A DNA stretch of 60,039 nt, filler included, from Hausera hauseri (Eukaryota), in assembly GCA_046269625.1 (NCBI GenBank). It is 12 parts of 12 records of this genome, joined end to end, with 100 filler letters (N's around TTAATTAATTAA, not from the genome) between each part and the next. Parts side by side here need not be neighbours in the genome. Positions count along the whole stretch, not along the records: positions 43,317 to 50,659 come from JBJURY010020786.1; 11 more parts are not named here. One strand, 5' to 3'. Shown here piece after piece: positions 3,001 to 60,039 of this stretch (position 1 is the stretch's first letter; each line of letters opens with the position of its first letter). The position numbers and the translations under genes are program-made. The notes beneath the pieces were generated by a model. The model made no database searches. It was not told where the DNA came from and was given only the letters and a program-made list of their open reading frames with translations.

Positions 3001-3739
3001 ATGATGGATCAGAGTGAGAAGAGAATCAGCAGTTCAACAATGGGAGATACCAGATTAACGGAGTAAAGCGAATGATCTGGCACATGAGAGGTAGATGGCG
3101 GAATACGCGAATGATATGATCCAGTAGTAAATACAACAATTATAGGATATAAGCTAGAACGACTCCTTTATCGAAAGAGTAAATTTCCTTTCTCAGATAA
3201 AAATGTCTTTGCTGACCATGGCGAATCTCAACGACATTGAAATATTTGAACGTGAAGATAGTCCGATTAGGTAGCCCATAGAGTACAATGCGAATTTCAT
3301 CGGAGAGTTTGTGTGATGCTAAATCGGCTGCGAAACTGAATAAATGGTTTGTAAGTATACACGTCGATAAATATAATATTTAATAAGATAAATAGTTCAC
3401 TTTCGTACGACGTCAAACCGGACGAAGTTGGAATATCGTCGAGTGTGCATAATTCAATAAATCTTCAAAATTATATTCAAATAGGTAAATGTTAATATAA
3501 TAAATAAACTTATATGTGTACGTATGAGACATACGCTAACGATACAGGAAGGTCGAGATATTTATGAAATTTAATGCACAGTCGAGTGTTGAGAGATAAA
3601 AAATTATATTCTTGGTTGGCCCGCAGATCTGGAATAGGAAGCATGTTTGGCGTTAATTCGGAAAAGTCTGGGTAGTTGTGAACAACCGGAGTGTAATTTG
3701 TACTGGAACCTATTCTCTGTTGTAATGTTTGGGAAAGCA

Positions 3740-4390
3740 ATAAACGCAATGCCACTTTATAGTTCCGAGAAAAACAAAATTTAAGAGAAACAAAATCTAA
3801 CGAATTGTGTATTGATCTAGAACGATGAAATTGCTTATGAATATTTAATGCATAATTACGTGTCAGGAAGTGAGAATTGTTCATTAATGGTCCACGAATT
3901 TGAATTAAAAACATGTTCCTACTGATCTGGAAGAATTTAAGCAATTACGAATATTCGGAATATAACCGCACTGGAACTGGTTTGAATTGTGGTCCATGGA
4001 AAGTTATAAACGTATTATGAACGTAACATCATCATATTATTTATGATAGGAATCGAATTAAACGTCTAGGTTTTTGGGATGCAACTTGATATATATACAT
4101 GTTTTGAAATATACACCATACGTTGGATACGTGTTTTTGGTTAGAAGTGAAATATACACCATACATTATTCTCTTGGTTAAAATTGAAATATATACTATA
4201 CATTATTCGGAAATTATCGCATATTTGAATTAAAGAAAAGGCAAAACATATATAAATTGAGGAAATCCACGCCATCAAAGCCATTTAGCTTCTTATTGAA
4301 ATTCCAACAACCAAAGGCGCAGGTATCTTGTATACCGAACCGCCCCCGGACTCCCCCTTCAGGTTTTTTAGGAACATTTATATGTTGTTA
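3740..4390 (-). repeat. Unclassified degenerate repeat family shared with contig 3 (about 11100-11345)
   Basis: CAAAGGCGCAGGTAT..GAACCGCCC.CGGACT..CCCTTCAGGTT..ATTTATATGTT at about 4312-4386 and 11272-11346; GTTCCGAGAAAA(A)CAAAATTT at about 3762 and 11129. Confidence 0.65.
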
Positions 4391-43316: not shown

Positions 43317-44067
43317 GATCTTTCGCAAAAAAAAGTGGTTCACGGAGCATATTCTCGGATGTTTTAAGAGCGAAGAATTCACGGTTACGAAGATCGGCGT
43401 TCACTACCACATTCATTTATTTGCGCACACGAAATACATCGACTACAAACTCTTTCGTCGTTGTTGGACGGAAAGTTTGCATTCTGCTATTCGTGATTCA
43501 GATTTAGAGTTTCAATTCAATACGTCCGACCAATTAGCAATGGCGAATTGCCGCCACGTCGTTAGCGTTGAATCGGCGATAAAAGAAGTCGCTAAATACA
43601 TCACTAAGTCCGACTCCTGGTCGAAGATTCCGACGAGCCAATTAATCGAGATCGCTCGCATTCGCCGGTTTCCGCGAATGACCGAATTCTGCGGAACTTT
43701 TCGGATTAATAATGAGATCGAGGACGAGCCAATCGAGGAGCAGGATACACAAGAGACTATCCTAGATACAAAGAGTTTATCTGACGGCGAAAAACTTCGC
43801 TCTTGGCGCGACGAGGTTCAAAAGATCGGCGCGTGGCAATATTCAAAACTTCTCCTGCATCAATTCGAGCAGTGTCGCGAATTTCGACGCTTCCAGTTGC
43901 GAAAACACTATCCTTACGCGCGCTTTTGGATGGTTTCTGTAGCCAAAGTGCGCTTTGGCGACGAGGTTCTAAACCGCTTCCGTGATTTCTTTGTGGCGTA
44001 TGAAACGAGTAAAGAAGGTCAGATAAAGACGGTTGAGCGAATTGCACAGTTTGCAAATCCCGCTTAA
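43317..44067 (+). CDS. rep: Rolling-circle Rep, 3' part
   Basis: Motif II VHYHIHLF near 43400, RRCW, motif III KEVAKYITK, R.F..CGTF; in frame with 50164 via the 77-nt overlap. Confidence 0.92.
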
Positions 44068-44070
44068 ACT
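44042..44070 (+). promoter_or_regulatory. Sigma70-like promoter for the nuclease-ZnF-parB unit
   Basis: TTGCAC-17 nt-TAAACT; ATG at 44080 follows without an SD (near-leaderless). Confidence 0.5.
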
Positions 44071-44079
44071 GTTACACGT

Positions 44080-44523
44080 ATGAACGGCTCTGAGTTAGTT
44101 CAACATTACGAGCGAGAGTTTGGGCCGTTCGTGCATATGGCTCCAAACGACAAGGCGATCTGGCTTAGATTCCTGATGCTCGGCGGCGTGAAGTATGCGC
44201 CGTTTGAATACGACGTTCGCGTCGGCAATGGCGTCGAAATGCCCGTCGGCACTACCCTAATGGGAAAAAAGGCCGCATATGCTCTTACAACGAAAAGAAT
44301 CGACTGTCTGGCCGTGCTCGATAATGTCCACTACATCATCGAGGTAAAACAGCGCGCAGGATTGTCGGCGGTCGGCCAGCTAATTGGTTACGAGTCGCTC
44401 TATCGGGCTGGATTTTCTGCTCCGGTTACGATTCAGAAAGTTTTGGTCACCGATGAGTTACAACCCGATATGATCGGCATGCTCATCGAGTATTCAATTC
44501 AATATTTCGAGGTAGGTTTTTAA
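44080..44523 (+). CDS. PD-(D/E)XK restriction-endonuclease-like nuclease (NucS/Mrr-like catalytic domain), 147 aa
   Basis: KRIDCL..YIIEVK..AVGQLIGY = D..ExK..QxxxY signature. Confidence 0.85.
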   Translation: MNGSELVQHYEREFGPFVHMAPNDKAIWLRFLMLGGVKYAPFEYDVRVGNGVEMPVGTTLMGKKAAYALTTKRIDCLAVLDNVHYIIEVKQRAGLSAVGQLIGYESLYRAGFSAPVTIQKVLVTDELQPDMIGMLIEYSIQYFEVGF

Positions 44524-44738
44524 TGATGAAGAAAAAAGCTCGCCGCGCGCAACCACGCGTTCCTGATGTATTTTCCGAATTCCCCCGCGACTGTCACTGC
44601 GGTTGTGGTCGAAGGGTGAGAGGTCGCGTTATCTACTTTAACGGCGCGTGTCGGGTCCGTCACCATCGCAACTTAAATTACGCCGACGATTTCAAAACGT
44701 CCGTTCGTCGCTACAAAGCGCGCTACGAAAAGAGGTAG
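44523..44738 (+). CDS. Small basic Zn-finger-like protein, 71 aa
   Basis: CHCGCG..YFNGACRVRHHR; TAATG overlap with the nuclease stop. Confidence 0.7.
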   Translation: MMKKKARRAQPRVPDVFSEFPRDCHCGCGRRVRGRVIYFNGACRVRHHRNLNYADDFKTSVRRYKARYEKR

Positions 44739-44739
44739 G

Positions 44740-45528
44740 ATGAAAATAAAATTATCAGAACTGGACTTGCCCGAACGTGATCTACGCGCATCAGTCGACG
44801 AAGAATCACTCGATGAGTTAGCCGACTCGATGCGCGACCACGGCCAGCTTCAACCAATCGGCGTATTCCAAAAACCGAACGGACGATACGAAGTCGAATT
44901 CGGTGCTCGCCGGACACGCGCTGCCATTCTTCTTGGTTGGGAAGAGATCGATGCCGCCGAAGTCCGTCTGTCTGAGAACGGCCATTCATCCGCGCGAAAA
45001 CTCATCGAGAACGTGCAACGCGAAAACCTTACCGCGATGGAAGAAGCCTACGGCTTAATTGAGCTTGTCGGCGACGGCGAAATCGACGTTCGCGCATTGC
45101 GCCGATCGACTGGCAAGTCTCTAAGCTGGATAAAATCGCGTTTGGAACTTCTTGAGATGCCCGACGACGCGCAGGCCGTCGTGCAAAAGGGTCTCGTCTC
45201 GCCGAGCGTCGCCAAGATTCTTTCGCAGATCGAAAACCACGAAGTGCGCGAGACCTACTTCAACTTCGCAATTGAAAACGGCTGCACGATAGACACGGCG
45301 AAGTATTGGTTAAGCCAAGCAAAATTTGCCGAAAATGGTGAACTGTCGATGCAGGAATTCGAGGCGAAGAAGTTTGATAAACCTGAAATTACAGATGTTG
45401 TCGAGCGTCATTGGTCGTGCTTTACTTGCGGTCTTCAACACACCGCGAAAAACTGCTCGACTATCGTAATGTGCGGAACGTGCATCGCTGAAATTGTCGC
45501 CCACCGTAACACTTCTGCGGCTTCTTAA
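44740..45528 (+). CDS. parB: ParB/Spo0J-family protein with C-terminal CxxC..CxxC Zn ribbon, 262 aa
   Basis: LDELADSM..GQLQPI, GARRTRA (GxxRxxA CTP motif), LIENVQRENLTAMEEA, HTH region GKSLSWIKSRLELL, then CFTC..MCGTC. Confidence 0.92.
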   Translation: MKIKLSELDLPERDLRASVDEESLDELADSMRDHGQLQPIGVFQKPNGRYEVEFGARRTRAAILLGWEEIDAAEVRLSENGHSSARKLIENVQRENLTAMEEAYGLIELVGDGEIDVRALRRSTGKSLSWIKSRLELLEMPDDAQAVVQKGLVSPSVAKILSQIENHEVRETYFNFAIENGCTIDTAKYWLSQAKFAENGELSMQEFEAKKFDKPEITDVVERHWSCFTCGLQHTAKNCSTIVMCGTCIAEIVAHRNTSAAS

Positions 45529-45540
45529 CCACTACCCCTA

Positions 45541-45569
45541 TTGACTTAAAACACGCCGCGCGCTACATT
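45541..45569 (+). promoter_or_regulatory. Sigma70-like promoter of putative structural operon
   Basis: TTGACT-17 nt-TACATT, then GAGG SD and ATG at 45589. Confidence 0.7.
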
Positions 45570-45588
45570 TTGTGGCGAGGGCAAAACT

Positions 45589-46020
45589 ATGGCAATCAAG
45601 GTTAAAGACCTAAACCGGACAGCCGCGAAGTGGGCTGAACGAGCGGGTGGAGCATCTGGCGCTTATGCAGAGGGCGTTCAAAACCCAAAACGGGATTGGG
45701 CAGACGCAACAATCGGCGCGGCTGACAACTACAAAACGGCCGTCACAAAAGCCGCGAACGAAAACCGGTTCGCTGGCGGTGTTCGACGGGCTGGCAGCGA
45801 CAAACAGCAACGCAATGCAATGGCAAAAGGCGTAAACCGTTACAGCGACGGCGTGGCTCAGGGACAACCCGACTACGCCACCGGAATGGAACCGGTTCTA
45901 GCGACGTTGGCGAATGTGAATCTGCCGCCACGCGGCCCGAAAGGTTCTCCGCAAAATTTGAAGCGCGTCGAGGCGGTCGACGTTGCTCAACACGCGGCAA
46001 AATTACAGCGACAGCGCTAA
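45589..46020 (+). CDS. Ala/Gly-rich basic helical protein, 143 aa (putative internal or DNA-binding virion protein)
   Basis: Recurrent (Y/F)xxGV units (AYAEGV, RFAGGV, RYSDGV) and C-terminal LPPRGPKGSPQN; first gene after the promoter. Function is inferred. Confidence 0.75.
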   Translation: MAIKVKDLNRTAAKWAERAGGASGAYAEGVQNPKRDWADATIGAADNYKTAVTKAANENRFAGGVRRAGSDKQQRNAMAKGVNRYSDGVAQGQPDYATGMEPVLATLANVNLPPRGPKGSPQNLKRVEAVDVAQHAAKLQRQR

Positions 46021-46029
46021 GAGGTTTGT

Positions 46030-46824
46030 ATGGGTAAAGCAGTTGAAATCATCGGCGGTTCCGCGACCGCTCCAAGCACTACCGCGACGGCGTTGACGAT
46101 GTTCACGGGCAACTCGAATGTCGTTCGCAATTGCGAAGAATCTGCGGAAGTGAAACTCTTGCAGGCCTGGGCGGACAATCAAGGCGCTGGCTTTTTGAGA
46201 ATTCGCTCGCCAAAACTTCACGACAACGTTCAAGGCATCAGAATGCAGTCGGTCGTGAGCGAACCCTGGCCATTGATGCCCTACAATATTCCGCAAAAAT
46301 TATTCCCTCAGGACACTTTAACTTTGGAGATCACGGGAAGCGCAACTGCCGGTGATATCGAATCTGCCGCTTTTCTAATCCATTATGCCGATCTTCCTGG
46401 CATCGAGGGACGGTTCATCGACGAAGCAGAACTGATGAACCGAATGGTCAATTTGATGGGGCAGGAAAACACGATTGCGACCGGCACGGCTGGCGGTTGG
46501 TCTGGCGAAGAAGCGATTAACGCCGAGTTCGACAATTTTAAAGCCAATACAGACTACGCATTGCTCGGCTATCTCGTTTCCGCCGAGTGTCTGGCCGTTC
46601 GTTGGCGCGGATCGGACACAGGCAACCTCGGCGTGGGCGGGCCGGGAAATATCTCGCCGCAGTTTGGCACGAATAACTGGTTCGTGAATTTGAGCAACCG
46701 CTACGGAATGCCTCTTATTCCGGTGTTTAACTCGGCGAACAAATCCGCGATTTTGATCGACGCCGCGCAAGATGAGAACGGAGCCGATGTAACGGTTACA
46801 TCGCTTTTCGCCCAGCTAAATTGA
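46030..46824 (+). CDS. Putative major capsid protein (double jelly-roll-like), 264 aa
   Basis: Gene call solid (GAGG SD). Beta-strand periodicity in two ~130-aa halves, G/A/T/N-rich, no TM segment, size close to PM2 P2. The fold is inferred, not shown. Confidence 0.55.
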   Translation: MGKAVEIIGGSATAPSTTATALTMFTGNSNVVRNCEESAEVKLLQAWADNQGAGFLRIRSPKLHDNVQGIRMQSVVSEPWPLMPYNIPQKLFPQDTLTLEITGSATAGDIESAAFLIHYADLPGIEGRFIDEAELMNRMVNLMGQENTIATGTAGGWSGEEAINAEFDNFKANTDYALLGYLVSAECLAVRWRGSDTGNLGVGGPGNISPQFGTNNWFVNLSNRYGMPLIPVFNSANKSAILIDAAQDENGADVTVTSLFAQLN

Positions 46825-47633
46825 TGACCGAAAACGGCCTCATAAGTTCAACCTCTATTCCAGTAAGCCCGAATGATTTTATTCGGGCTGTGTTTTGGAA
46901 CAACAATTCCGGCACATCGTTTACAGTTTTTCTTCGCTACTCGCTTCTATTAAAAGACGGTTCGATTGTCGACGGCAACGAACAAATTTCCGTCGCCGCC
47001 GGCGCATCGGCTCAAGTGAATAGATTCGCTTTGACCGACGGCTGGCTGCTCTCGGCGTCGATCTCTGCATCCGGCGCTCCGACGCAGGCCGGTTTGGTTT
47101 ATTGCTCACTCGGCATTCAGCAAGGAGCTCCGAACGACCCTGCGAATGTCCTCACGCTCATCTCGAATTACATTGCAGGTTTTGGGCCGCTTCAATATCC
47201 GCTCGGCGGCACGACTGCTCCGAACGAAATTTACGGCGCGTCGATAGCCGAGCAAATCCCCAACCCTGGCGGCGGGACTGAATACAACGCAAACCTTCTT
47301 TTCGCCGGCTTCGTGAAGATAATTTCCGTTTCGGTAAATTTTAGTTCGAGCGCGGCTGTCGGTGATCGCATCCCGTCGATCAAAATAAGCGACATAACCG
47401 GCAATGTTGCTCACTTTGGCATAAGCTCAAAAATCCCCGCTTCCAGTAACGTTCAAATCTACTCAATGGCGACGCCGTTGCCCTCAAACATAGTCGCGAA
47501 CGTATTCTATTTTCAGTTTACCTTCTTGCCATTCATCCAAAACCCGATCATCCAAACCGTAACCCAAAATATACAAGGCGGCGATTCATACGACTCGATG
47601 ATTGTCCGTTACCGCGCGAAAACCGCGCTCTAA
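46821..47633 (+). CDS. Second beta-rich putative virion protein (penton/spike or second jelly-roll), about 270 aa
   Basis: Overlaps the preceding stop (TTGATG); S/T/N/G/I-rich beta pattern in two halves joined by a YPLGG..PNPGGG linker. Confidence 0.5.
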   Translation: MMTENGLISSTSIPVSPNDFIRAVFWNNNSGTSFTVFLRYSLLLKDGSIVDGNEQISVAAGASAQVNRFALTDGWLLSASISASGAPTQAGLVYCSLGIQQGAPNDPANVLTLISNYIAGFGPLQYPLGGTTAPNEIYGASIAEQIPNPGGGTEYNANLLFAGFVKIISVSVNFSSSAAVGDRIPSIKISDITGNVAHFGISSKIPASSNVQIYSMATPLPSNIVANVFYFQFTFLPFIQNPIIQTVTQNIQGGDSYDSMIVRYRAKTAL

Positions 47634-47639
47634 AAAACT

Positions 47640-47912
47640 ATGCCAGACTGCGACGACGTATTTGAAGGCGCGGGCATTCCATTTGAGGAAGAGTATCAGG
47701 ATAGAGCTGTCCATTATGCTTGGTCTGTGTTCGGTTCAGATCCGCACTATTCAAAATTCCTGATTCAATGCTGGTTCGATACGACCTACGGGCTTTGGTC
47801 TGGCAGCCGTTTCGATAATCGAAATTCGCGCGAGAAAATGTCGGCTTGGCTCAAGCGCAACAATTATGTTACATTCGAGGAGTTTATTAAACTCGGTCCG
47901 AGAGAGGAGTAG
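47640..47912 (+). CDS. Hypothetical protein, 90 aa (aromatic-rich)
   Basis: ATG 6 nt after the previous stop; co-oriented. Confidence 0.65.
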   Translation: MPDCDDVFEGAGIPFEEEYQDRAVHYAWSVFGSDPHYSKFLIQCWFDTTYGLWSGSRFDNRNSREKMSAWLKRNNYVTFEEFIKLGPREE

Positions 47913-47916
47913 CACA

Positions 47917-48108
47917 ATGAAAGATTCAAAAGTTCAACACGTGGCATTGAGGATTCGATCGGCACACAAATTTCACCAAGCCGCGCTCGCCGACGCTCTA
48001 AAACAGACCGACGACGACGAAAAGCAAGCCGAAGCTCTACACGTCCTTCTCGCCGCCTTCAACGAGCTAAAAGCCGCGATAGAGTCGATCAATACGTTAA
48101 CCAGATGA
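47917..48108 (+). CDS. Hypothetical helical protein, 63 aa (MKDSKVQH..)
   Basis: GAGGAG SD at 47904-47909 before ATG 47917; ATGA overlap with next gene. Confidence 0.7.
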   Translation: MKDSKVQHVALRIRSAHKFHQAALADALKQTDDDEKQAEALHVLLAAFNELKAAIESINTLTR

Positions 48109-48374
48109 CCGACCCGAAATGCAATCCTGTCCATCCCCAACTCGAAAAGGTCTTTATGACTTTAAGCGTCTCTGGCTCAGGAAATCAGATTGCAATCACC
48201 GTGATCTACCAAGCTTGCAAGGAGTCGCGTAGCCGCACATACCGCGTCACCGCCGAAGACGACGAGACGTTTATACTGCCCGACGACCTGCACCGCGCCA
48301 CGCTCCGAATGCTCGACGGCGTTTCCGCCGCGATAATGCGCCTAGCCCGCCACGGTTACGACCGAGAACCTTGA
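48105..48374 (+). CDS. Hypothetical protein, 89 aa
   Basis: ATGA coupling upstream and TTGA overlap downstream. Confidence 0.65.
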   Translation: MTDPKCNPVHPQLEKVFMTLSVSGSGNQIAITVIYQACKESRSRTYRVTAEDDETFILPDDLHRATLRMLDGVSAAIMRLARHGYDREP

Positions 48375-48574
48375 GAAAGCATTGTCTAAACTGCAATTCA
48401 ATAATTAACGAAAACCAACTTCGTTCGCTTCAATACATTCGTAAGCGAGACCGCAAAATAATGGCTACGCTAAAGCCGCTGCTCTGCCCGCATCCGTGTT
48501 TCGATGCCTACGAGGCTAGGCTTAGAAATTCACACAACGACCCTAAATATTTCCATAAGACAGTAAACGCTTAA
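48371..48574 (+). CDS. Hypothetical Cys-containing protein, 67 aa
   Basis: CLNC..CPHPC; TTG start overlapping the previous stop. Confidence 0.5.
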   Translation: MRKHCLNCNSIINENQLRSLQYIRKRDRKIMATLKPLLCPHPCFDAYEARLRNSHNDPKYFHKTVNA

Positions 48575-48649
48575 AAAAAACACGATCACGATTTTCTTTC
48601 TCCTTAGATCGATGTAACGCTTTTTTGTCTGACAATTCAAAATCTCCAA

Positions 48650-49330
48650 AGCGCGCGCATCATTCATTCTTGCGCGCGATTATCATTACAAAACGAAACA
48701 TTCATTGCGCGCGCATCGATCATTCACCGTGCGCGCAAGCATTCAAACGCGATAAAAACATCCAATTATGCGCGATCACGATGCGCGCGCGCGCATCCAT
48801 CAGCCGTTCGCCGCGCGCGCGCCCATCCAAAGGGCATCGAATCCATTCATTTCACGTGATCACGGCAAAAGAAACGACGAATTACAACCAAAAGCAGATC
48901 GAAGCGCGCGCGATAGCGCGATAGCGCCGAAAGCGCGCCCATCCATCGACCGTTCGCCGCGCGCGCGCCCATCCATCGCCAAGCGCGCATCCATCCATCG
49001 CCAAGCGCGCGCCCTTCCAATGAGCGCGCGCAGGCATCCAAAGGCTTTCTTCTTCCTTTCCTGAGCCGTGTTGCTGGTTAGAGACGACTTTTAACCGAAC
49101 CAAAGGCCGCGCGCATCCATATCTTTCCGAGTTGTCTCTTGAAATGTTTGCCCGCTTCGCGAAATCCACGCGCGCTTCCGTTCCTTTCGCCCGCGAAAGC
49201 CCCGCGTCGAGGCGACGCGCTGCTTCGCGACCTGCGCCATTCCTTGAAATGTCTTTCCGCTTCGCGAATTCATAGCTCTTGGCCGGCTGTGCCGACCGCC
49301 GCGAAATCGCGGCGACCGTCACGCGGCAAT
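48650..49330. repeat. Non-coding GCGCGC/CATCCAT repeat cluster with direct repeats
   Basis: More than a dozen (GC)3-6 runs; CCGTTCGCCGCGCGCGCGCCCATCCA at about 48804 and 48950; CTTGAAATGT.T..CCGCTTCGCGAA at about 49138 and 49243. Confidence 0.85.
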
Positions 49331-49598
49331 CCAAACTCGTCTCTCGCCAAACGAAATGCGTGTGTCCTACTACTCTTATTACCTATCTACACACTTCGGC
49401 CATTCACCTGCTCGCCTAACGCTCAGTGGTTACTACTGCTATTCCTGTTATTTATAAATTAGGGAAATGTCATTGACCCAAATCAAGTTGAGTGAAGCGT
49501 GGTAGGTTAGCTCCGACTCTTAATTTTTATGTTGATGATCGCCTTGCCGTCGTGCCGTTTCGCGTTATCAAATAACGCCAGAAAAAAAAAACGCGAAA

Positions 49599-49744
49599 GC
49601 CGGAATCGGCAGCCGGATCGCCCAATTGTCTTTTTTTGCGTCGGCGGCGTCAAGGGTCAGGCTGGGCGGCGGAAACCGCCGCCCTTGACCCCGCCGCCGC
49701 AAAAAAATCCATATGGCGATTAATCCGGCTGCCGGCTGTCCGGC
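49599..49744. promoter_or_regulatory. Large nested inverted repeat (candidate single-strand origin or packaging signal)
   Basis: 49607-49618 pairs with 49723-49734; 49631-49656 pairs with 49682-49707 (2 mismatches); inner GGGCGGCGG-AAA-CCGCCGCCC. Confidence 0.7.
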
Positions 49745-49767
49745 CTTCCGGTTTGAGGAGAATGAAT

Positions 49768-49998
49768 ATGTCAACACAACTACCTTTGATATTTACATCA
49801 CCGGATGAGGTCGCGAGCGACCTCGCCATTATTCGTGTTTCCGCCATTGACGTGTGCAACACTGCGCATGATTTGGCTTACCGCGAGTGTCGTGGTCGCC
49901 AGCGTGAGCGGGTTTTGCGCGAGACCAGTTTGCGGCGACAGCGCATTCTTGATGCCATTCGGCGTCTCAATCGCGGCTATGTGCGGTTTCGCGACTGA
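49768..49998 (+). CDS. Hypothetical Arg-rich protein, 76 aa, upstream of rep
   Basis: GAGGAG SD at 49755-49760, 7 nt before the ATG. Confidence 0.7.
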   Translation: MSTQLPLIFTSPDEVASDLAIIRVSAIDVCNTAHDLAYRECRGRQRERVLRETSLRRQRILDAIRRLNRGYVRFRD

Positions 49999-50072
49999 CC
50001 GTTTCCGGCTTGACTCTCACTTTTACTTTGTGTAACACTTCTCTCGTCAGTCGAAAGACCGGCAACACGGCT

Positions 50073-50118
50073 GGTTAGGGCCGCGCTTGAAGCAAAAGCT
50101 TTGCGGCCCTAACCTTTT
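50073..50118 (+). terminator. Intrinsic-terminator-like hairpin in the rep leader
   Basis: GGTTAGGGCCGC (50073-50084) and GCGGCCCTAACC (50103-50114) form a perfect 12-bp stem followed by TTTT. Confidence 0.6.
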
Positions 50119-50163
50119 GCAGAATCGTGGAACAGTGACGCACGTCGTTTTTCATCCATTATT

Positions 50164-50659
50164 GTGAAGCCGCCTCTGTATCACAAGGCTCAGGCTTTAG
50201 AGTCAGCCGAGTTTGGTCGGTCTATTTCTTCGACGATTGAATCCGCAATTCTTACAAATTCTCCGAAAGATCACGCCGAGATCGGTTCACTAGCGCTTCG
50301 GATCAAGTTGTGCAATTCTGAGGAAAATATTTGGTTCGGCGAGGACTTGCATACTCCTGACGGCGAATGTTATTCGGCTCACGGTCGGTTCTGGGCTTGC
50401 GGGTCGCGTTTGTGCCCGTCTTGCTGTTCGGCTCAGAGCCGCCGAGCCCGCCGAGAGCTTCGAAAGATCGTCGCCGGGCAAAAACTGCTGCTCGGCCAGC
50501 ACTACAAATTTCTAACCTTGACAATGCCGAACAAAGGCATCGGTTTGCTAGCTTCACGCGAGGTTATAAATAAGGCGTGGTCGATCTTTCGCAAAAAAAA
50601 GTGGTTCACGGAGCATATTCTCGGATGTTTTAAGAGCGAAGAATTCACGGTTACGAAGA
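50164..50659 (+). CDS. rep: Rolling-circle Rep (HUH, pC194/Rep_1-like), 5' part; continues across the circular junction (about 389 aa in total)
   Basis: CGSRLCPSC Zn motif, motif I FLTLT, EFTVTK running into IGVHYHIH after the join. Confidence 0.92.
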
Positions 50660-50759: not shown

Positions 50760-53146
50760 TTCTCGGGGCTTTCTAGGTCTGCCGACTGGGCGTTTTGGTC
50801 TCGGAGCATTGGCTGGCATTCCACTTAGCGGTATTGGGTTCTTGTCGTATTGTTCCTTGTTTTCATCTGTCTGTAAGTATTCGAAGTACAGTGCTGCATC
50901 TCGTACTCCCATGATTTGTCCTACGCATTGTTCCGTTTTCGCCTTTCGCGTGGCTTTTTCTTTCGTCTGTTCATTAGCTATTGTTTCTACTATCCGATTT
51001 GTTTCGTTGGGAATAATTCCGACATTTATTAACTGTTCTGAATCATCGAGTATTCTTCCTCTAAAGTAAAATCTGTAATTTTGTTCGTTTGTTCTGCCAT
51101 TGTTTAGTAACCATTCTGTTACGTCCTTTACGTTGGAATGATTAGTTAACTCACATTCTTTTTCTTTCATCCACTTGGATGATATAATTATTTTTATCAT
51201 TACTTCGGGTTTAGTCTTCAAGATGTCTGCGTATTTTTTTATCAAAAGTTTTGGCACCGTACTGTAAATTGTATTTTCGCCAGATAATCTAGTCAAAGTC
51301 GGAATAAGTTGTCTAAGCTTATTTTCAGTTATATTTACATTAATTGATTCCATCAAGTCTTTCTCGGTTAACACTGAGTCTAGGAGCATCTCTACATTGA
51401 ATTTCCTATTCTGCGGATACATTTGTATTTCATCTAGATGTACTGGAGTTACCGGATTTTGGCCGCTATTTCGTCTAAATAAACATCCCATTTTGGTTCA
51501 TTTTCAATATCTCGAAGTCCATAGTCTACTATGGCTGTGTTCGTTTTTTGCACATTTTCGCGAATTTCTTTCAGTCTTGGTTGCATTTCATCTGCGTAGT
51601 TCGGAAACCAATTTTGTTCTCACACGCATACTGAATCTTTTTCAGTAATTCGCTTAATTCATTAGAATCGATGAATCCCTTTTGGTGATAATCAGTTAGT
51701 TCAATAATTACATCTCTGCCATCTTTGCACAAATTCTCGTTTATTTTTGATCTCTGACTCAATAAAAGCATATTTGTTCCGATAAGCTTCAAGCTCTTAC
51801 GTTAGTTCGTCCAACCTTGTTGCTCTTTGTTCTGTTTTAATACATGTTTCTTCTACTTTCTGTATCTTGGGCATCAATTGTCTCATCCTCTCATCACTAA
51901 TCTCCGCCATTTCTACCAATAAGTACATCTCATAGTTTTTGAGTCGGGGTCCATTGCATCCGACAATTTCTTCACAAACTTGTGTTCCTGAATGCTAAAG
52001 TGTGGTTCGTCTCTTATTTTTTTCAACTTGGTATGAAAATTCTGATCTGATCCGGTTATCCATTCTTGTGGTCTATGCAAGTATTTTATTGCATCTGTTA
52101 ACGTATCTCGATATCCGGGACAGGTGTCTAAGATTTCAATGTCTTGGGCAGAGATCTTGTCGATTGGTTTATTTGTTAAGTGTTGTATTCCTTCTAGTCG
52201 AACAACTTTTAACTTTGAGTTTACATCATAAATCATGTTTCGCTTTTTCGTGAAATTTGTCTCTTCGATCAATTTATAGATCTTCTTCAATATCGACATT
52301 TATTCTTTTTTCATAAATTTTAGTCCTCGTAATGCTTTGAATTGAGTACGAATGTCTATTTCTGTTCGTATTGTGCCTAGGTCATGTGTACTTTCTGCTA
52401 GCTGCTTCTTTATCATTGGCTCGCTTTGCGGAAATTCTTTTTTGCTGTCTTCTACTAATTTGCTTAGTCGGTTTACTAATTCGGACTATTCCGACAATTG
52501 GTTCGCGATTACTGGTTTTGCCATTATAGCTTTATCTAACATATTATATGCATCTTCTAACCAATCGTCCGGCCCTCTTAGGAAGTTCATAATTCGACCG
52601 ACATAACAAACTTGTCCTTATATGCGTCAAATTCTATAATACAAGCCTTCATTATATATTTAGTTTCTTCATTATTTATAAACATAATTCGATTTTTTAA
52701 ACTGTTGATCTGTGATCTTTTTTGTTTTCAATTTTGATGCGGCTCTCTAAGTCCGCACATCGTCTGTTTTCGACAAAGGCAATTTTTATTATCTCCATTA
52801 AAGGAGGAATATTTATCAGATCTACACCCAATATTTCTACATCGATACTACTTCGATTGCTAACCGGTTTTTCCCTAAGCCGATTAATCATTGTATAACG
52901 TATTCCGTCCATCTAACGTTCCAATTTACGGGCTGCTCTCTTCAACTTGGGATTAGCTTCTAAGGTAGAGAGCAGTGATTGCGCTTCAGCGACTTTTGTA
53001 CCTATACTATCTTTATCGTTACTCCAGTCTTCGGAAAATTCTACTCCGCTTTTAATCCACAATCCTAATTCGTGGTTCCATTTTATCAAAGTATCTCGTG
53101 GCACCTGCTCCGGTTGTTTATTTCAATTGTTCCTTCATCGAGTTTC
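50760..53146 (-). pseudogene. Degenerate accessory ORF with internal ubiquitin-like domain (about 50990-51200) and AT-hook-like KRPVGRPRK
   Basis: SNVKDVTEWL..NYRFYFRGRILDDSEQLINVGIIPNET resembles ubiquitin QRLIFAGKQLEDGRTL; homologous to 32975-33301. Confidence 0.65.
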
Positions 53147-55225
53147 CCTTCATTCCACAATTTTAAAGTCTTGTATATGTACTCTACAAATTGTTGTTTC
53201 TTACCAGATATGCTTGTTTGTTTACTGATCTGTTTCAGCCTCTCTAAATTTTGTCAGAGTATTTCTGGATTGTGACATTTAGTTCTCACTTTTTTAATTC
53301 ATCGGCATTTTCCATAAACGTCGAACTTCCCATTTTCTCGCATCAGAATCACTATTATCGTCCGTTTCTTCCTCTCTGGCGGGAAGCGGACAAACTTTGT
53401 TTATTTCGTTATTAACATTTATCATCTATGGCATTTCTAACACTTTCCGCATTTAAATCTACATTTTGAGATGTTGTTGGTTTCTCGAACTGCTTTATTT
53501 CTTGCGGAACAGACTTTTTGCGTGCCATATTCGTGTTGTTCGGTGCCAATGCCCATTCTTCTTCAATTTGTGGTTCTCTTAATCAATGATAAACTTTCAT
53601 TAGTCGTAATTTCTTTTCATATTCGTTTCTAGCTTTCATTATCTGAGGATTTGTAGTTTCGCCTAGATTCCTTACAGATCTGCGTAAATCTTGCATTTCA
53701 ATAATCAAGCTTATATCACTTCGTTTGCCATAGATGGCTTCTAAAGTATTCTTAATCATACTTGTTTTGTTCGGTTCAGTAAATGTAACACTTCTTGGAT
53801 TTGGGCATGACCTAGCGATGTGTCCTTCTTTTCCGCATGTAAAGCAAATTATATTTTCATTTCCACCAATCCTTTGTCTGCTATCCTTATTTACAGGTGA
53901 TTTTGATCTGTTTGTATTCTTATTCTGGTTCTGTAACATTTGTCTATTATCTGCATCATACCTATTATCATTATTTCGATTATCCGTGTATTTGACATTA
54001 GGTCGGTAACTACCTTGATTTCTATCTGAATTGTAACTCGATTTATTATGTGAGTTGTTTTGATTATTACTAAAATTTCTGTCATTTCTTTGACTCCTAT
54101 TGTGAGCATTGTGTTATCTTGGTTATCATTTCTATTCCGATTATTTCCGTCATTATTCCTTTTATACTTGTCACATTTCTGGGCATATCTATCTAATGCC
54201 ATTTCTAAGTCTTGAGCTAATTGTATTGTCCGTTCAAAATTATCGAGTCTAGCCAGAATTAACTGTTTAACTAAATCTCTTGACCATATACCATTTATTA
54301 ATTGAGTTGTCATCATGACGTCTAAATCTGGCGGTGTTGCCTTTTCTGAGGCCTCACGCTCTGCTTCTGTCTTAGCTTTTGCTACATTAGCTATTCTCAA
54401 AGTAGAAGTTTCTTTAATGCACATGCAAACTGGGTTACTGATTCACCCTTTTGTTGTACTCTATTCTAAAATGCCATGAGTTTCTGTTGCGGCACTACTG
54501 TTGACAATAAGTTGTGGTTTAATGCTCCTACCAGGGAGGATCAAGATTTTTTTTGTCGTTAGTAAGCTCACTATAGGCATCAGCAGCTAAATTTTTAAGA
54601 TATAGTGATAACCGTTTTATTGTTACTTCAGGAGTAAGACTAGCACCTTCCGCGTGCAACTTATAAGTTCTCAGAAAATCGTTTAATCCGTCCGGATCAC
54701 CATCGTATGCCGGAAAATTCAAAGAATCAAATGAAAAAATGTCGAGCTTTTGTGCTATGGCTGGATTATCCGCTGCCATCTCTATCTTATTCTTAGAAGG
54801 TTTATCCTTAAGTCGAGGAAGTTTAAACTTACCGTTTGGCTCTGTATTAATTCTTGTTTCAGAATTTGTTCTGTATATAACTCTGCGTGTCTCTTGTATA
54901 GGCGATTTATTTCTACCGTTTATTTGGTTATCAACGTCCGTAACCTTCATTCCACAATTTTAAAGTCTTGTATAGTTTCTCTGCAAATTGTTGTTTCTTA
55001 CCAGATATGCCTGTTTGTTTACTGATCTGTTTAAGCCTCTCTAAATTTTGTCAGAGTATTTCTGGATTGTGACATTTAGTTATCATTTTTTAATTCATCG
55101 GCATTTTCCATGAATGTCGAACTTCCCATTTTCTCGCATCAAAATCATTATTATCGTCCGTTTCTTCCTCTCTGGCGGGAAGCGGACAAACTTTGTTTAT
55201 TTCGTTATTAACATTTATCATCTAT
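53147..55225. repeat. ~282-bp direct repeat (53147-53429 and 54944-55225) flanking a gag copy
   Basis: Near-identical copies about 1796 bp apart; the last 77 nt of the contig match the internal copy exactly. Confidence 0.92.
53583..54800 (-). pseudogene. Retrotransposon gag with CCHC zinc knuckle, frameshifted
   Basis: FPAYDGDP..FL..Y, LSLYLKNLAADAY, RVQQKGESVT (major homology region), QLINGI, Asn/Arg-rich linker, CFTCGKEGHIARSC. Confidence 0.88.
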
Positions 55226-56199
55226 NNNNNNNNNNNNNNNNNNNNNNNNNNNNNNNNNNNNNNNNNNNNTTAATTAATTAANNNNNNNNNNNNNNNNNNN
55301 NNNNNNNNNNNNNNNNNNNNNNNNNAACTAGAAGATTCCATATCAATTTATATTTCTATATATAATTGACATTATTCAAACAAATTATCTCATATTTTCT
55401 AATTTTAACAAATGAGTTTCACAAATATTTTCGTTTTGTGATAATAAATTATGGTACTTATTCTGTACCCTTCTACATTGCCATACTTCTTCATTATTCC
55501 CATATAAAAATGCATGTTTATTTGGCAAAAATACACTAATATTACGTTGAAAAATTTTATTTATACTGACGAGCAAAGGTATATACAATATTGGTCGAGT
55601 AACAGAAAAATACGGAAAATAGGTGGAAATCTGTCACAAGTTTCTAAAGTTTCTTATGTGTATTGTTAAATTGGTAGGATATTAAAGAAGTACCTCGAAG
55701 TAGAGATGATAACACAGAAGTGCCTAAATGTGGTAGAGTTAAAATTGAAGCTTACAAATGAAAAATTGAAATCCATTCGAAAAATTTCTTGTTATTCCTA
55801 TCAAAACACGTCGAGTTTGGTTTTTACGGTCTTAAAGAAATGGAAGAAACTTCATTTACTAACGTTTGATGTTTTTGTTCTTCGTAAAACGTTGTGCTGT
55901 AGTGGCCTCTGTGACTATTTCAATGTTACACATCAAGTAGAACATTAATGATCACATCTAACGCAATCAATCGAACGAAATTGTAACTCTAACTTATTTC
56001 AGTCATTTCTATTACTCTTCGAATAAAAACTTACCCTTGAAACGCAACTCAAAGGTAAATAATATGCATTTAATTATAAACTACAGTAAAAGAATGAAAT
56101 ACGAAGAATTTTATTGACTGAACCAAAATTATGTGTTGCTGGTGCCATTTAATTTAGAGTAGCGCAGTTAATACAGGATGTCCGAAAATTAATGCCCGC

Positions 56200-59100
56200 G
56201 GCAAAATCAGAAATCTAAACTTCACCGTATGTCGTTGGGAAGTGATTTAACGGTGGTTTAATGAGCGGCAAAGTTTTGAATTTTTGACATGGGATACTAA
56301 TGGATACAATGGCCAGATTACTTTGGTGTGAAGAAGACGGTAAGTGTTTAACTACCAGGATAGAGAAGATTATGGATGTGATCAAAGGCTTGTTTGCCGA
56401 AATCCTCTGACAATATAGGTCGTAAAGTTCCCGACAATGTGGTATCGAAGATGGTACCTTCTATGGTTTCGATATTCTTGAAATGTGCGATATCGGATGG
56501 GACGATGGGTTTCGACGAGGAGTCTCCCGAAAGAATACCCGGAGAAAATCGATTGACAACACAGAACGTGACATAAAATCGGCTACAACGTTTTAAAATT
56601 GAATTGAGATAAACGAAATTTTCCTCTCTTGGCGTAGGGAAGGTGTGAATTTCTGTCATTTCGTTTTTGATTTCAGTTAATTCGGTAATATTCTTTTAGA
56701 CAGAATTTGACTGGAGATTGAATAAATTTATAATTAAATTCGGAATTAATAATTTGATCGAGATCCAGAAAATTAGAATTCATAAAAGTTTTATTTGATT
56801 CTCACATATGTATGCTGAATATTCAAACAACGAAAATCATGATAATTTACAAATATTTCCTGTCATTTTTAGGTGGGCCAATGAGGGCACCACAGAAGGG
56901 TTGCGCATTTGTTGCCTATATTCCAATGGTTTATAATCAGTTTGGACTGTGAAAGAATTTCCTGTCACCATGTGCTGAAAATGCTTGATGGCAAGAAAAA
57001 TTGAAAGTAGCTCTCTATCAAAAGTCAAGTAATGCGTTTCGGTTTTATAGAATTTGTAGCTCCAGAATTTTAATGGCTCATGTGTTTCGTTGTTCAGTTG
57101 ATGTAGGACTGCGCCTGCCAATATTATAGATGCGTCAGTTGACAAATACTATGGTGCACCCTTTTTTGGGTGAGCGAGAATTTTAAGATCCCGTAGCTGT
57201 GGCTTTAGCGTGTTAAAATCAGTCGTTAAGGAATCTGTCCACTGAACTTTACATCGTTTTAGACCAGAAACTAGGGCAGAAAGGTTCGCGGTGAAAAGTG
57301 AACAGTTAGAGATGTACTTGTGGCAAAAGTTTACCATTCCTAGGAAGTTGCGCAGTTCTGTCACGGTCGATGGACAAGCAATGTTGCGAATAGAATGTAA
57401 TCGCTCAGGCAGTGGCGTGTGTCTTTGCGCTGAAATGAAATGGCCCAAGAATGTGACGGAGTGAACACAGAAACGAAATTTACTCCAATTTACTTGGAGG
57501 ATGTGGTATTGGGGGAGCTTAAGAAGAGTGCGCATGTGTTCCGTGTGTTGGCCTTCGTCTCCGGAAGCGATCAATATATCGTTTACGTATGGGAATGCGA
57601 AAGGCAGATATGGTAGCACAGAGTCTATATGCCGCTGGAATGTTTGGGCAGCGTTGCAGAGTCCAAACGGCATGTAGAGATATTCAAAGAGGCCAAATGG
57701 CGTTGTTATTGAGGTCTTCTGAATATCTTCCGGAGCGACTGGAATTTGATGGTAAACTTTCTGCAGGTTCACAGTTGACAATATGTTGCTACCATCTATT
57801 CTACTGGTACCACGTGAAATGGTAAAGCCCAACGGGCGGTAGAACGTCGGATTGTGTCTTCTCGTTCGAGTTGTAAGAATTTAGCTTTGACTATGTTGCA
57901 ACGTTCTGTTTGGCGTTCGCGACGGTGTTGTGCTACTGAGCGTGTGAAATCGTGTGAATATTGTGGAATGTTGAAGTTGAAGGCTTAAATGTTTTGGACT
58001 TTTGCAGTGTATTCGTGCAATTTGTGAGGATAAAGGATTGTAAAGCAGAAGGAACGGTGAAAAGTTCAGTGGTACGACTGATATTGACACTTTTTGCCTT
58101 CTTCGTTCGTTTGTGCCACTATGGGTCTTTGCCATGAAACATGTTTCCTATTTCTATTGCCTTCAACTAATTTAAGGATTGTGTTAATAGGCGATTTTAA
58201 ATTAGTTGTCAGCCTATCATAAGTTTCGCGGCCAACAGCATTCTGCGTTCGCAATCAACGAGCAAGTCAAAGGCTTGAAGAAAGTTTGAATTGGTTACTG
58301 AACGTCGGCAACAATGAACTGTCACAAGAAAATGTTGTTTACAGAGTGAAGCTTAAATGATAATTTTCGCTCTCCATCAGTTTTGATGGGTGTGCAGTTG
58401 GCAGCGTTTAGGTTTTGACAAACGATATTATTGGTTGGCGCTCTGTAAGAAAGAAGAAGAGCAGAAATTGCCAAACGGGTGTTAAGAAGAAAGGAAATGT
58501 GTGCTTCAGACTGTCCGGTGTTGATGGTTGCTTGCGTAAAGAAAACGGCGTTTACGGCTGTTTCAGCTTGGTGTATAAATATGAACGGCAAAGATTTATG
58601 TAGGCTCATACCAGAGGTTGCCGAGCGCTTTGACAGCCTTATAAGTTTAAAGCTAATGATGGAGACTTGTTGTGATTGCAACCGGGAAATAATGTTTTGC
58701 ATTGTCGCCATATGCTGTATGGAAGACGTACATTTTGGAAAATATGGCTGCACCTTTGTTGCGAAAATTGCACTCTATATGAGACTTATTTGCTCTTTCA
58801 CTGAAGTGTTTATAATAGAAGCAAATCAGTCCTCGACTGCGAGACTTACATCTGCGACGGGATGTGGATTTGTTACGTGATAGGACAATTGGATTAAATG
58901 TGTTTAATCTTTGGAATGACTGGTGTACGCTGTTGTTTTGTATTGCTTGCACCATCATAAAAGAGTTTAACGTTTCAGTTAATTTATCTGTGTAGTCCAT
59001 GAGTTTAGCAGAGGCCTCTGGCTCCTTCACGGACATGGCCGCTACTGTGGGTGAGGTAGTTAATGTGCACATCGCTTGTTGTAGGGGCTATAGAGCTCCT

Positions 59101-59865
59101 AACGACTCCAAAGATTTTTCCGCCGTTACTATGAAATCGTCAAGACTTACTGCTGGTGAGACAAATGGGAAGAATATTTGTAGCTCGCGGGAGACAACTT
59201 TGTACAAACAGTCGTTTCAACAAGTTCTCGTTATCGCCAACGTTTATTTTATGCCGCAAAAAGTCGTCTTTTAGGAGACGTAAATACTCGGTGGGGGTTT
59301 TGGAACCTATCGGATTTGTGGTGAATTATTTTTAATTAGGTCCAGTATCAGCGTTTCTGACAACTTTATCATGACCTGACATAAAGCATCGTAAGGGTGA
59401 TCGAATGCGAGTAACGCCGGTATTTCAGAAATTTTTGATGGAATTTGATTGGCAGTTGCGAAAGGAGGCAGTAAGCCTGTGCTTTTGCCTGGGATTAGTA
59501 TCTACTAACCATTGTCAGTGAAGACCAAGACATTGGCTAGCAAATCCTTTTACCTTAAAGAAAGGTGGGCATAGGAACGTATTGGTGGTTGAAAGTGACT
59601 GCTTAATCTCTTCTTGAGCATCTTCCGTCGGTGAGCCGCCTCTCAACCTGATAGAAATTTCCAATCTTATTGACTCTCTAGGTTTGAAAGAATTTGAAAG
59701 CAAGGCTGAAGATTCGTAAATGAGTTGGAACGCATGTCTAATGGCGAGTCTTATATGTGAGGGGCAAGAAATAGCTTTTATCACTTTAATTAAATCGCTA
59801 TGAGTTGCGTTGTTATGAAGTTGAAGATTATAATTTTTATTATGACATGCAAAATAAAAATTCAA
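56200..59865 (-). mobile_element. Ty3/Gypsy retrotransposon, degenerate, with N-terminal Ubl leader
   Basis: gag RSRGLICFYYKHF..C; protease INTGQSE; [45 protein letters not shown]; TDAS, FDRELL, TDYKPL; start of IN Zn domain. Confidence 0.93.
59635..59865 (-). CDS. 77-aa ubiquitin-like leader fused to gag
   Basis: Frame start to ..IRLEISIRLRGG is 77 codons (ubiquitin is 76 aa ending LRLRGG); followed in frame by SPTEDAQEE..CPPFF (gag). Confidence 0.7.
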
Positions 59866-60039
59866 ATTAAGGGGTTAAAGGAGCAGGCTGAATTATTGAT
59901 CCGTTATTAGTTCCCAAAAAATTATAGAATTGCAAAAAATTTAGAATCGCAGACAATATCAAAGTACAATATGCTATAGAATCGCGAAAAACAAAATTGA
60001 CGTACCAGGATTATCCTGTTCCTGACACCATTTATTATG

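Follow-up and report, generated by a model that had tools for sequence, protein, structure and literature searches.

Several kinds of jelly-roll virus do without a packaging ATPase. The Odin group of Yutin et al. 2018 consists of small ATPase-less putative double-jelly-roll (DJR) viruses of 7–11 kb (PMC5894146, excerpts), and SPV1 coats its DNA with the protein VP1, again with no ATPase (PMC8459092). A rolling-circle Rep is used by both PM2, a double-stranded DNA (dsDNA) virus, and FLiP, a single-stranded DNA (ssDNA) virus (PMC8812541, excerpts), and canonical DJR viruses are described for Huginn virus and in the Asgard virus preprint (PMC9246712, excerpts). Here we analyze a stretch of 60,039 nucleotides (the window) made of 12 parts of the Hausera hauseri genome assembly GCA_046269625.1, in which one contig, JBJURY010020786.1 (43317–50659), carries a circular element with a Rep, a ParB and a 264-aa candidate capsid protein. 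We estimate at about 0.75 the probability that a small bacterial virus without a tail has this circle as its genome, with a predicted capsid of the 264-aa protein around DNA coated by a 143-aa protein, and no packaging ATPase.

The contig (43317..50659, no strand) is a circle of 7266 nt once a 77-nt overlap is removed: positions 43317–43393 are exactly identical to 50583–50659, at a spacing of 7266. Because 77 nt is among the usual assembler k-mer lengths, this overlap is the mark of a closed circle and not a biological terminal repeat. No other N-free segment of the window ends in such a repeat (1/13), and the GC content of the contig is 0.51, against 0.34–0.42 in the other 12 segments. The other contigs (1–43216 and 50760–60039) are AT-rich and joined by N-linkers, and the circle's composition sets it apart from them as foreign. 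As a preliminary description of this contig had proposed, the Rep frame stays open over the join (389 aa). In one public run (X1), which holds 98% of the circle's sampled words, a single Logan contig runs across the junction from 50582 to 43317, reaching 255 letters on its shorter side; this support consists of contigs rather than reads, and is not independent since the window may have come from the sample behind X1. The element is real and complete, and we conclude that it is likely a small ATPase-less jelly-roll virus of a new sort.

The circle has 12 plausible genes, all on the plus strand, matching the roughly 12 intact co-oriented genes first described. The structural module, with homologues counted over the 93 relative loci that we compared (many of them fragments), is as follows.

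45541..45569, plus strand: sigma70-like promoter (TTGACT-17-TACATT) ahead of the structural module, read by eye
45589..46020, plus strand: basic, internally repeated protein of 143 aa, predicted to be all-helical; homologues in 80/93 loci
46030..46824, plus strand: 264-aa candidate major capsid protein, jelly-roll domains at about 1–124 and about 132–264
46821..47633, plus strand: 270-aa variable protein, candidate vertex or spike; family often duplicated (105 ORFs, open reading frames, across 77/93 loci)

None of these three proteins matched Pfam or PHROGs, and a 264-aa profile gave no hidden Markov model match below E 0.3 among PDB chains. The predicted 264-aa monomer scored a pTM (predicted template-modelling score) of 0.91, with a pLDDT (predicted local distance difference test) of 92.7–94.5 over five models. 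Foldseek matched both halves to jelly rolls, the N-terminal barrel finding its best structural match in the SPV1 capsid protein, and in each half helices come after a strand. The fold check proposed in the preliminary description was borne out for the two jelly rolls of the 264-aa protein but not for a whole-chain superposition on double jelly rolls of the FLiP/PM2/STIV type (template-modelling score, TM, about 0.2 for STIV, PRD1 and PBCV-1). Among the matches listed, whole-chain fits to DJR capsid proteins gave TM 0.19–0.26 and root-mean-square deviations (rmsd) of 17–21 Å (TM 0.22, rmsd 17.8 for the STIV capsid protein), and the FLiP capsid protein appeared neither among these fold matches nor as a sequence match. 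On this model, the predicted angle between the two barrels differs from the one seen in DJR viruses of known structure. That the protein represents an independent double-barrel design is a proposal to which we give slightly less than even odds.

Could the element instead be a strict Odin-group virus, its 264-aa protein being a far-diverged canonical DJR protein whose domain angle is mis-modelled or differs only in the monomer? The succession of strand then helix in both halves would fit such a protein, and Foldseek aligns the capsid proteins of STIV, PRD1, PR772 and PBCV-1 along its full length. However, these full-length fits are the poor ones given above, the double jelly rolls of PNGase F and of the Orf virus scaffold align with only one domain, and the model is a confident one in all five versions. 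We consider this explanation unlikely, and return to its gene content below.

The 143-aa protein, predicted to be all-helical, is a candidate genome-coating nucleoprotein. It could alternatively be the helical coat of a filamentous virus or satellite, the jelly-roll proteins then being end or receptor-binding structures. A basic, internally repeated helical protein present in 23/23 loci of 11–15 kb would suit that role, and a filament would easily accommodate the spread of genome sizes, from 3 to 15 kb, found within a single 264-aa family. Against it, the 264-aa protein is the more conserved of the two (mean column identity 58% in alignment A1 versus 38% for the 143-aa protein in A2, the sets not being matched), and a 3-kb genome keeps the 264-aa protein without a 143-aa gene. 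A filament is therefore the least probable explanation that we weighed, and highly improbable.

This 3-kb genome is MW202783.1 (L093), a 3063-nt circle from Manatee Spring filed as Inoviridae. It encodes a 264-aa homologue, a hydrophobic ORF, a protein weakly matching the 270-aa family and, at 1–1026, a HUH Rep of the G2P type whose reading frame the record's annotation overlooks; the 143-aa protein, ParB and the nuclease were not found in it. It may be the smallest genome of the 264-aa family, and its filing as Inoviridae is likely wrong. The Manatee Springs study worked on chloroform- and DNase-treated particles (PMC8388828, main text), a study to which the record is tied by its source label only, the accession being absent from that text.

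The remaining genes and the non-coding stretch are:

50164..50659, plus strand: N-terminal part of Rep, through the junction, with a Zn-binding-like CPSC and Rep_1 motif I
43394..44067, plus strand: C-terminal part of Rep, with HUH motif HYHIH and YITK; total 389 aa
44080..44523, plus strand: NucS-like PD-(D/E)XK nuclease by Pfam, 147 aa; homologues in 43/93 loci
44523..44738, plus strand: basic Cys/His-rich ORF, 71 aa, net charge +15
44740..45528, plus strand: ParB, 262 aa, with ParB_N, HTH_ParB, GxRR and a C-terminal CxxC-CxxC; homologues in 45/93 loci
47640..47912, plus strand: 90-aa ORF common to the nearest circles, L027 and L028
47917..48574, plus strand: three small ORFs (63, 89 and 67 aa)
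48575..49760, no strand: non-coding; contains short GC-rich repeats and a hairpin
49762..49998, plus strand: ORF of 78 aa located upstream of rep, its ribosome-binding site a good one

Rep runs for 389 codons from a GTG at 50164, with CPSC at 84, HYHIH at 169 and YITK at 234. Its N-terminal half scores just below the Pfam Rep_1 cut-off (33.1 bits against 33.2, E 5e-8), and a full-length relative in L002, 47% identical, passes it (E 3.6e-15). The nuclease matches NucS_C (E 2.6e-5) and ParB matches ParB_N (1.4e-14) and HTH_ParB (3.8e-10); GxRR is kept in 39/39 members of the ParB family, and no ParA was found alongside the circle's ParB. Pfam and PHROGs returned nothing above family cut-off for the 63-, 89- and 67-aa ORFs, no Pfam family was found for the 78-aa ORF, and the 71-aa ORF had no family match and no homologue among the 93 loci. 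The non-coding stretch contains seven copies of a 21-nt GC-rich repeat and a hairpin with 35-nt arms (49622–49716), at which public contigs break; the stretch is a candidate replication origin or ParB-binding region. An Rfam search of the circle gave no match.

The absence of a Walker A ATPase, integrase, holin and membrane-spanning coat protein, already noted in the preliminary description, was confirmed by pattern, family and hydropathy scans: no ORF of at least 50 aa has a Walker A pattern, Pfam and PHROGs matched no protein of the circle to a packaging ATPase, integrase or holin family, and no membrane-like segment was found in the 11 non-Rep ORFs (19-residue hydropathy maximum 1.45).

The 264-aa protein belongs to a large family that is absent from the protein-family libraries searched. 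We counted 2523 relatives among 3449 candidates, and at least 737 clusters at 50% identity. At least 386 of 603 metagenome matches were confirmed, of which 80 were kept; homologues were also found in 11 genome loci (7 titled Acidobacteriota), one IMG/VR locus and 1 of 50,697 phage records, and in none of the PLSDB plasmids. Open-access literature yielded no description of the family, subscription papers lying outside that search.

When 51 capsid candidates (loci of at least 4.8 kb plus L093) are placed in a tree, the circle groups with L002, L027 and L028 (support 0.89). Rep_1 is present in L002 and L027; in L028, a closed circle, its place is taken by an HTH_36 protein; with the G2P-type Rep, the family shows three initiator states. 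The Rep cluster occurs in 4 of the 93 loci, and the 23 relatives of 11–15 kb have Rep_1 in none, the 143-aa gene in all, ParB in 22 and a long helical-repeat protein in 22. Because initiators swap among the nearest relatives and Rep is absent from the large ones, the replicon can be exchanged, leaving the structural module as the core. This bears on whether the circle is simply a non-viral plasmid or Xer-integrating element, with beta-rich proteins that bind carbohydrate or form oligomers as mere cargo. Genes such as Rep_1 and ParB are typical of plasmids, many non-viral proteins contain jelly rolls, IMG/VR has a single locus and the circle has no lysis gene. Yet what is conserved is the beta-module and not the replicon, PLSDB holds no homologue, and the 3-kb record filed as a virus contains little else; this explanation is thus quite unlikely. 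The tailless ATPase-less virus of the preliminary description is supported by the jelly-roll model, the three-gene module, the 3-kb viral record and integrated copies, but its likeness to canonical DJR viruses did not hold for the predicted chain as a whole.

Large relatives carry genes on both strands. The helical-repeat protein (460–960 aa, no Pfam match; L091 10064–12850 and 25 other loci, larger relatives only) comes after a hydrophobic 270–470-aa protein and another of 70 aa; together they may serve DNA delivery or form an internal part of the virion. Among 69 selected ORFs, Pfam detected no polymerase and one ATPase, in L082. This 7-kb contig (30% GC, Chitinophagaceae bin) has a capsid candidate and no 143-aa gene; its P-loop ATPase and lytic transglycosylase (549–1130, 3609–4118) may mark an ATPase-using variant. 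Inverted repeats of 123, 55 and 123 nt end the 5–6 kb low-GC relatives L036, L061 and L071, which may therefore be linear or closed by hairpins, unless the repeats arose in assembly. Cargo seen in single relatives comprises an amidase, a PAPS reductase domain and an adenine methyltransferase (L067, L071, L077). The same module occurs in a 10-kb, 46% GC contig from a Korarchaeum bin (L085), through either an archaeal host or mis-binning.

Integrated copies point to hosts. The 143-aa family profile matched 2/401 genomes of the phylum of G001. In both G001 (L099 3820–18959) and G148 (L097 10595 to L098 4457), the element is flanked by miaB-like/BFN genes on one side and truB on the other, with no integrase match inside it. 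Half-duplicated sites bound it, forming a direct repeat of 16 nt in G148 and a near-repeat in G001, and the full 11-6-11 site lies on the truB side in both. We call these sites dif-like by comparison with the dif consensus. Their right arm resembles the XerD arm given in PMC9966536 (excerpts). The integration point would indicate the likely dif site of these Acidobacteriota. A Terriglobia bin probably contains a third integrated copy, since at L083 8761 a dif-like site separates host genes (P-type ATPase, squalene-hopene cyclase) from the module. In the 7266-nt circle the best dif-like score, 8.3 bits, was attained by 45/60 shuffles, so none stands above chance. Plasmid persistence, as first proposed, therefore fits the circle itself, but its relatives integrate. 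The circle's host is likely a bacterium, and Acidobacteriota are the best-supported hosts of the family.

What would the cycle of such a virus be? Rep may nick an origin within 48575–49760, the circle being copied by rolling circle as a plasmid-like carrier. ParB, presumed to be a CTP clamp because its GxRR motif is intact, would help to retain it in the cell. From the sigma70-like promoter the structural genes would be expressed; the 143-aa protein would coat the DNA and a shell of the 264-aa protein assemble around it, so that no packaging ATPase would be needed. Such coating followed by enclosure is proposed by analogy with SPV1 and its VP1. The 264-aa protein, being the most conserved gene and the one kept in the 3-kb relative, may form the facets, and the variable 270-aa protein the vertices. 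Relatives would integrate through host XerCD. The suggestion that the packaged DNA is probably ssDNA was drawn from Rep and is not supported: Rep is absent in 23/23 relatives of 11–15 kb, and does not decide strandedness because dsDNA PM2 and ssDNA FLiP each use one. We put packaging of ssDNA at somewhat under an even chance.

The top ranks of virus classification are defined by capsid folds. Excerpts of PMC8812541 argue that DJR capsids did not come from fusion of SPV1-like single barrels and regard viruses lacking an ATPase as ancestral states. A family of at least 737 clusters, if its two barrels do meet in a different geometry, would allow a direct test of this argument. From the dif-integrated copies, Acidobacteriota emerge as a host phylum in which to look for particles. 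The family also marks a blind spot, with no Pfam or PHROG model, one IMG/VR locus against at least 386 metagenome matches, and its sole GenBank phage record filed as Inoviridae. We tentatively propose, at a little less than even confidence, a widespread lineage of 3–15 kb bacterial viruses, largely missed by databases, with a second independently evolved double-barrel capsid protein (two SPV1-like jelly rolls fused at a new angle) that displaced the canonical DJR, or was displaced by it, in an Odin-type plan, free initiator swaps, and hijacking of XerCD/dif in Acidobacteriota.

How does the circle compare with known groups? As previously argued, it does not fit Inoviridae: a Zot-like ATPase and small membrane-spanning coat are lacking (no Walker A, low hydropathy). 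It shares HUH and YxxK Rep motifs with pC194-family rolling-circle plasmids, which differ in that the circle has ParB and a structural module whose capsid candidate is not in PLSDB. NO16-like vibriophages and CTXphi insert without an integrase at dif-like sites (PMC9966536, excerpts), as two relatives do, but a canonical DJR and an ATPase are both present in NO16, and the circle itself has no such site above chance. Compared with canonical DJR capsids (PRD1/PM2/STIV), the predicted monomer has two jelly rolls per chain without the conserved barrel orientation. FLiP (Finnlakeviridae) is likewise a small circle with a rolling-circle Rep and no ATPase; its capsid resembles PM2 P2, its Rep is of another family and it has no ParB, and the circle has no membrane protein. 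SPV1 (Portogloboviridae) shares the N-terminal barrel match and the lack of an ATPase; a nucleoprotein core, for which the basic helical 143-aa protein is the circle's candidate beside VP1, and a carrier-like life without lysis would also be common to both. It differs in its 20-kb dsDNA, lipid membrane, archaeal host, lack of Rep, and VP4, a single jelly roll forming hexamers where the circle's candidate is predicted to have two domains per chain (PMC8459092).

The gene content is closest to Odin, which speaks for the strict Odin explanation. In the text and supplements of Yutin et al. 2018, Odin has the same 7–11 kb size and lack of packaging ATPase, ParB, a NucS-like PD-(D/E)XK nuclease, AbrB (the AbrB-like c12 among our relatives), a second beta-sandwich protein and a small conserved gene (cons1) before the capsid gene, here by position alone (80/93 loci), the text supplements containing no cons1 sequence; Odin ParB and nuclease stretches in the supplement resemble those of the circle, judged by eye only. 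However, that text and its figure legend list no Rep, PolB is sporadic in Odin against none in our 69 scanned ORFs, and four conserved motifs of the 264-aa protein are missing from the text supplements. The Odin-like capsid of the preliminary description was not upheld: since the capsid protein used as the Odin query has 395 aa and is STIV-like (HHpred 99.9–100% to STIV and PM2) and the 264-aa protein has neither a sequence nor a whole-chain structural match to STIV-like canonical DJR proteins, the circle lacks the STIV B345/PM2 P2-like capsid that defines the group. A demonstrated member of none of these groups, the circle works like the ATPase-less jelly-roll viruses Odin, SPV1 and FLiP.

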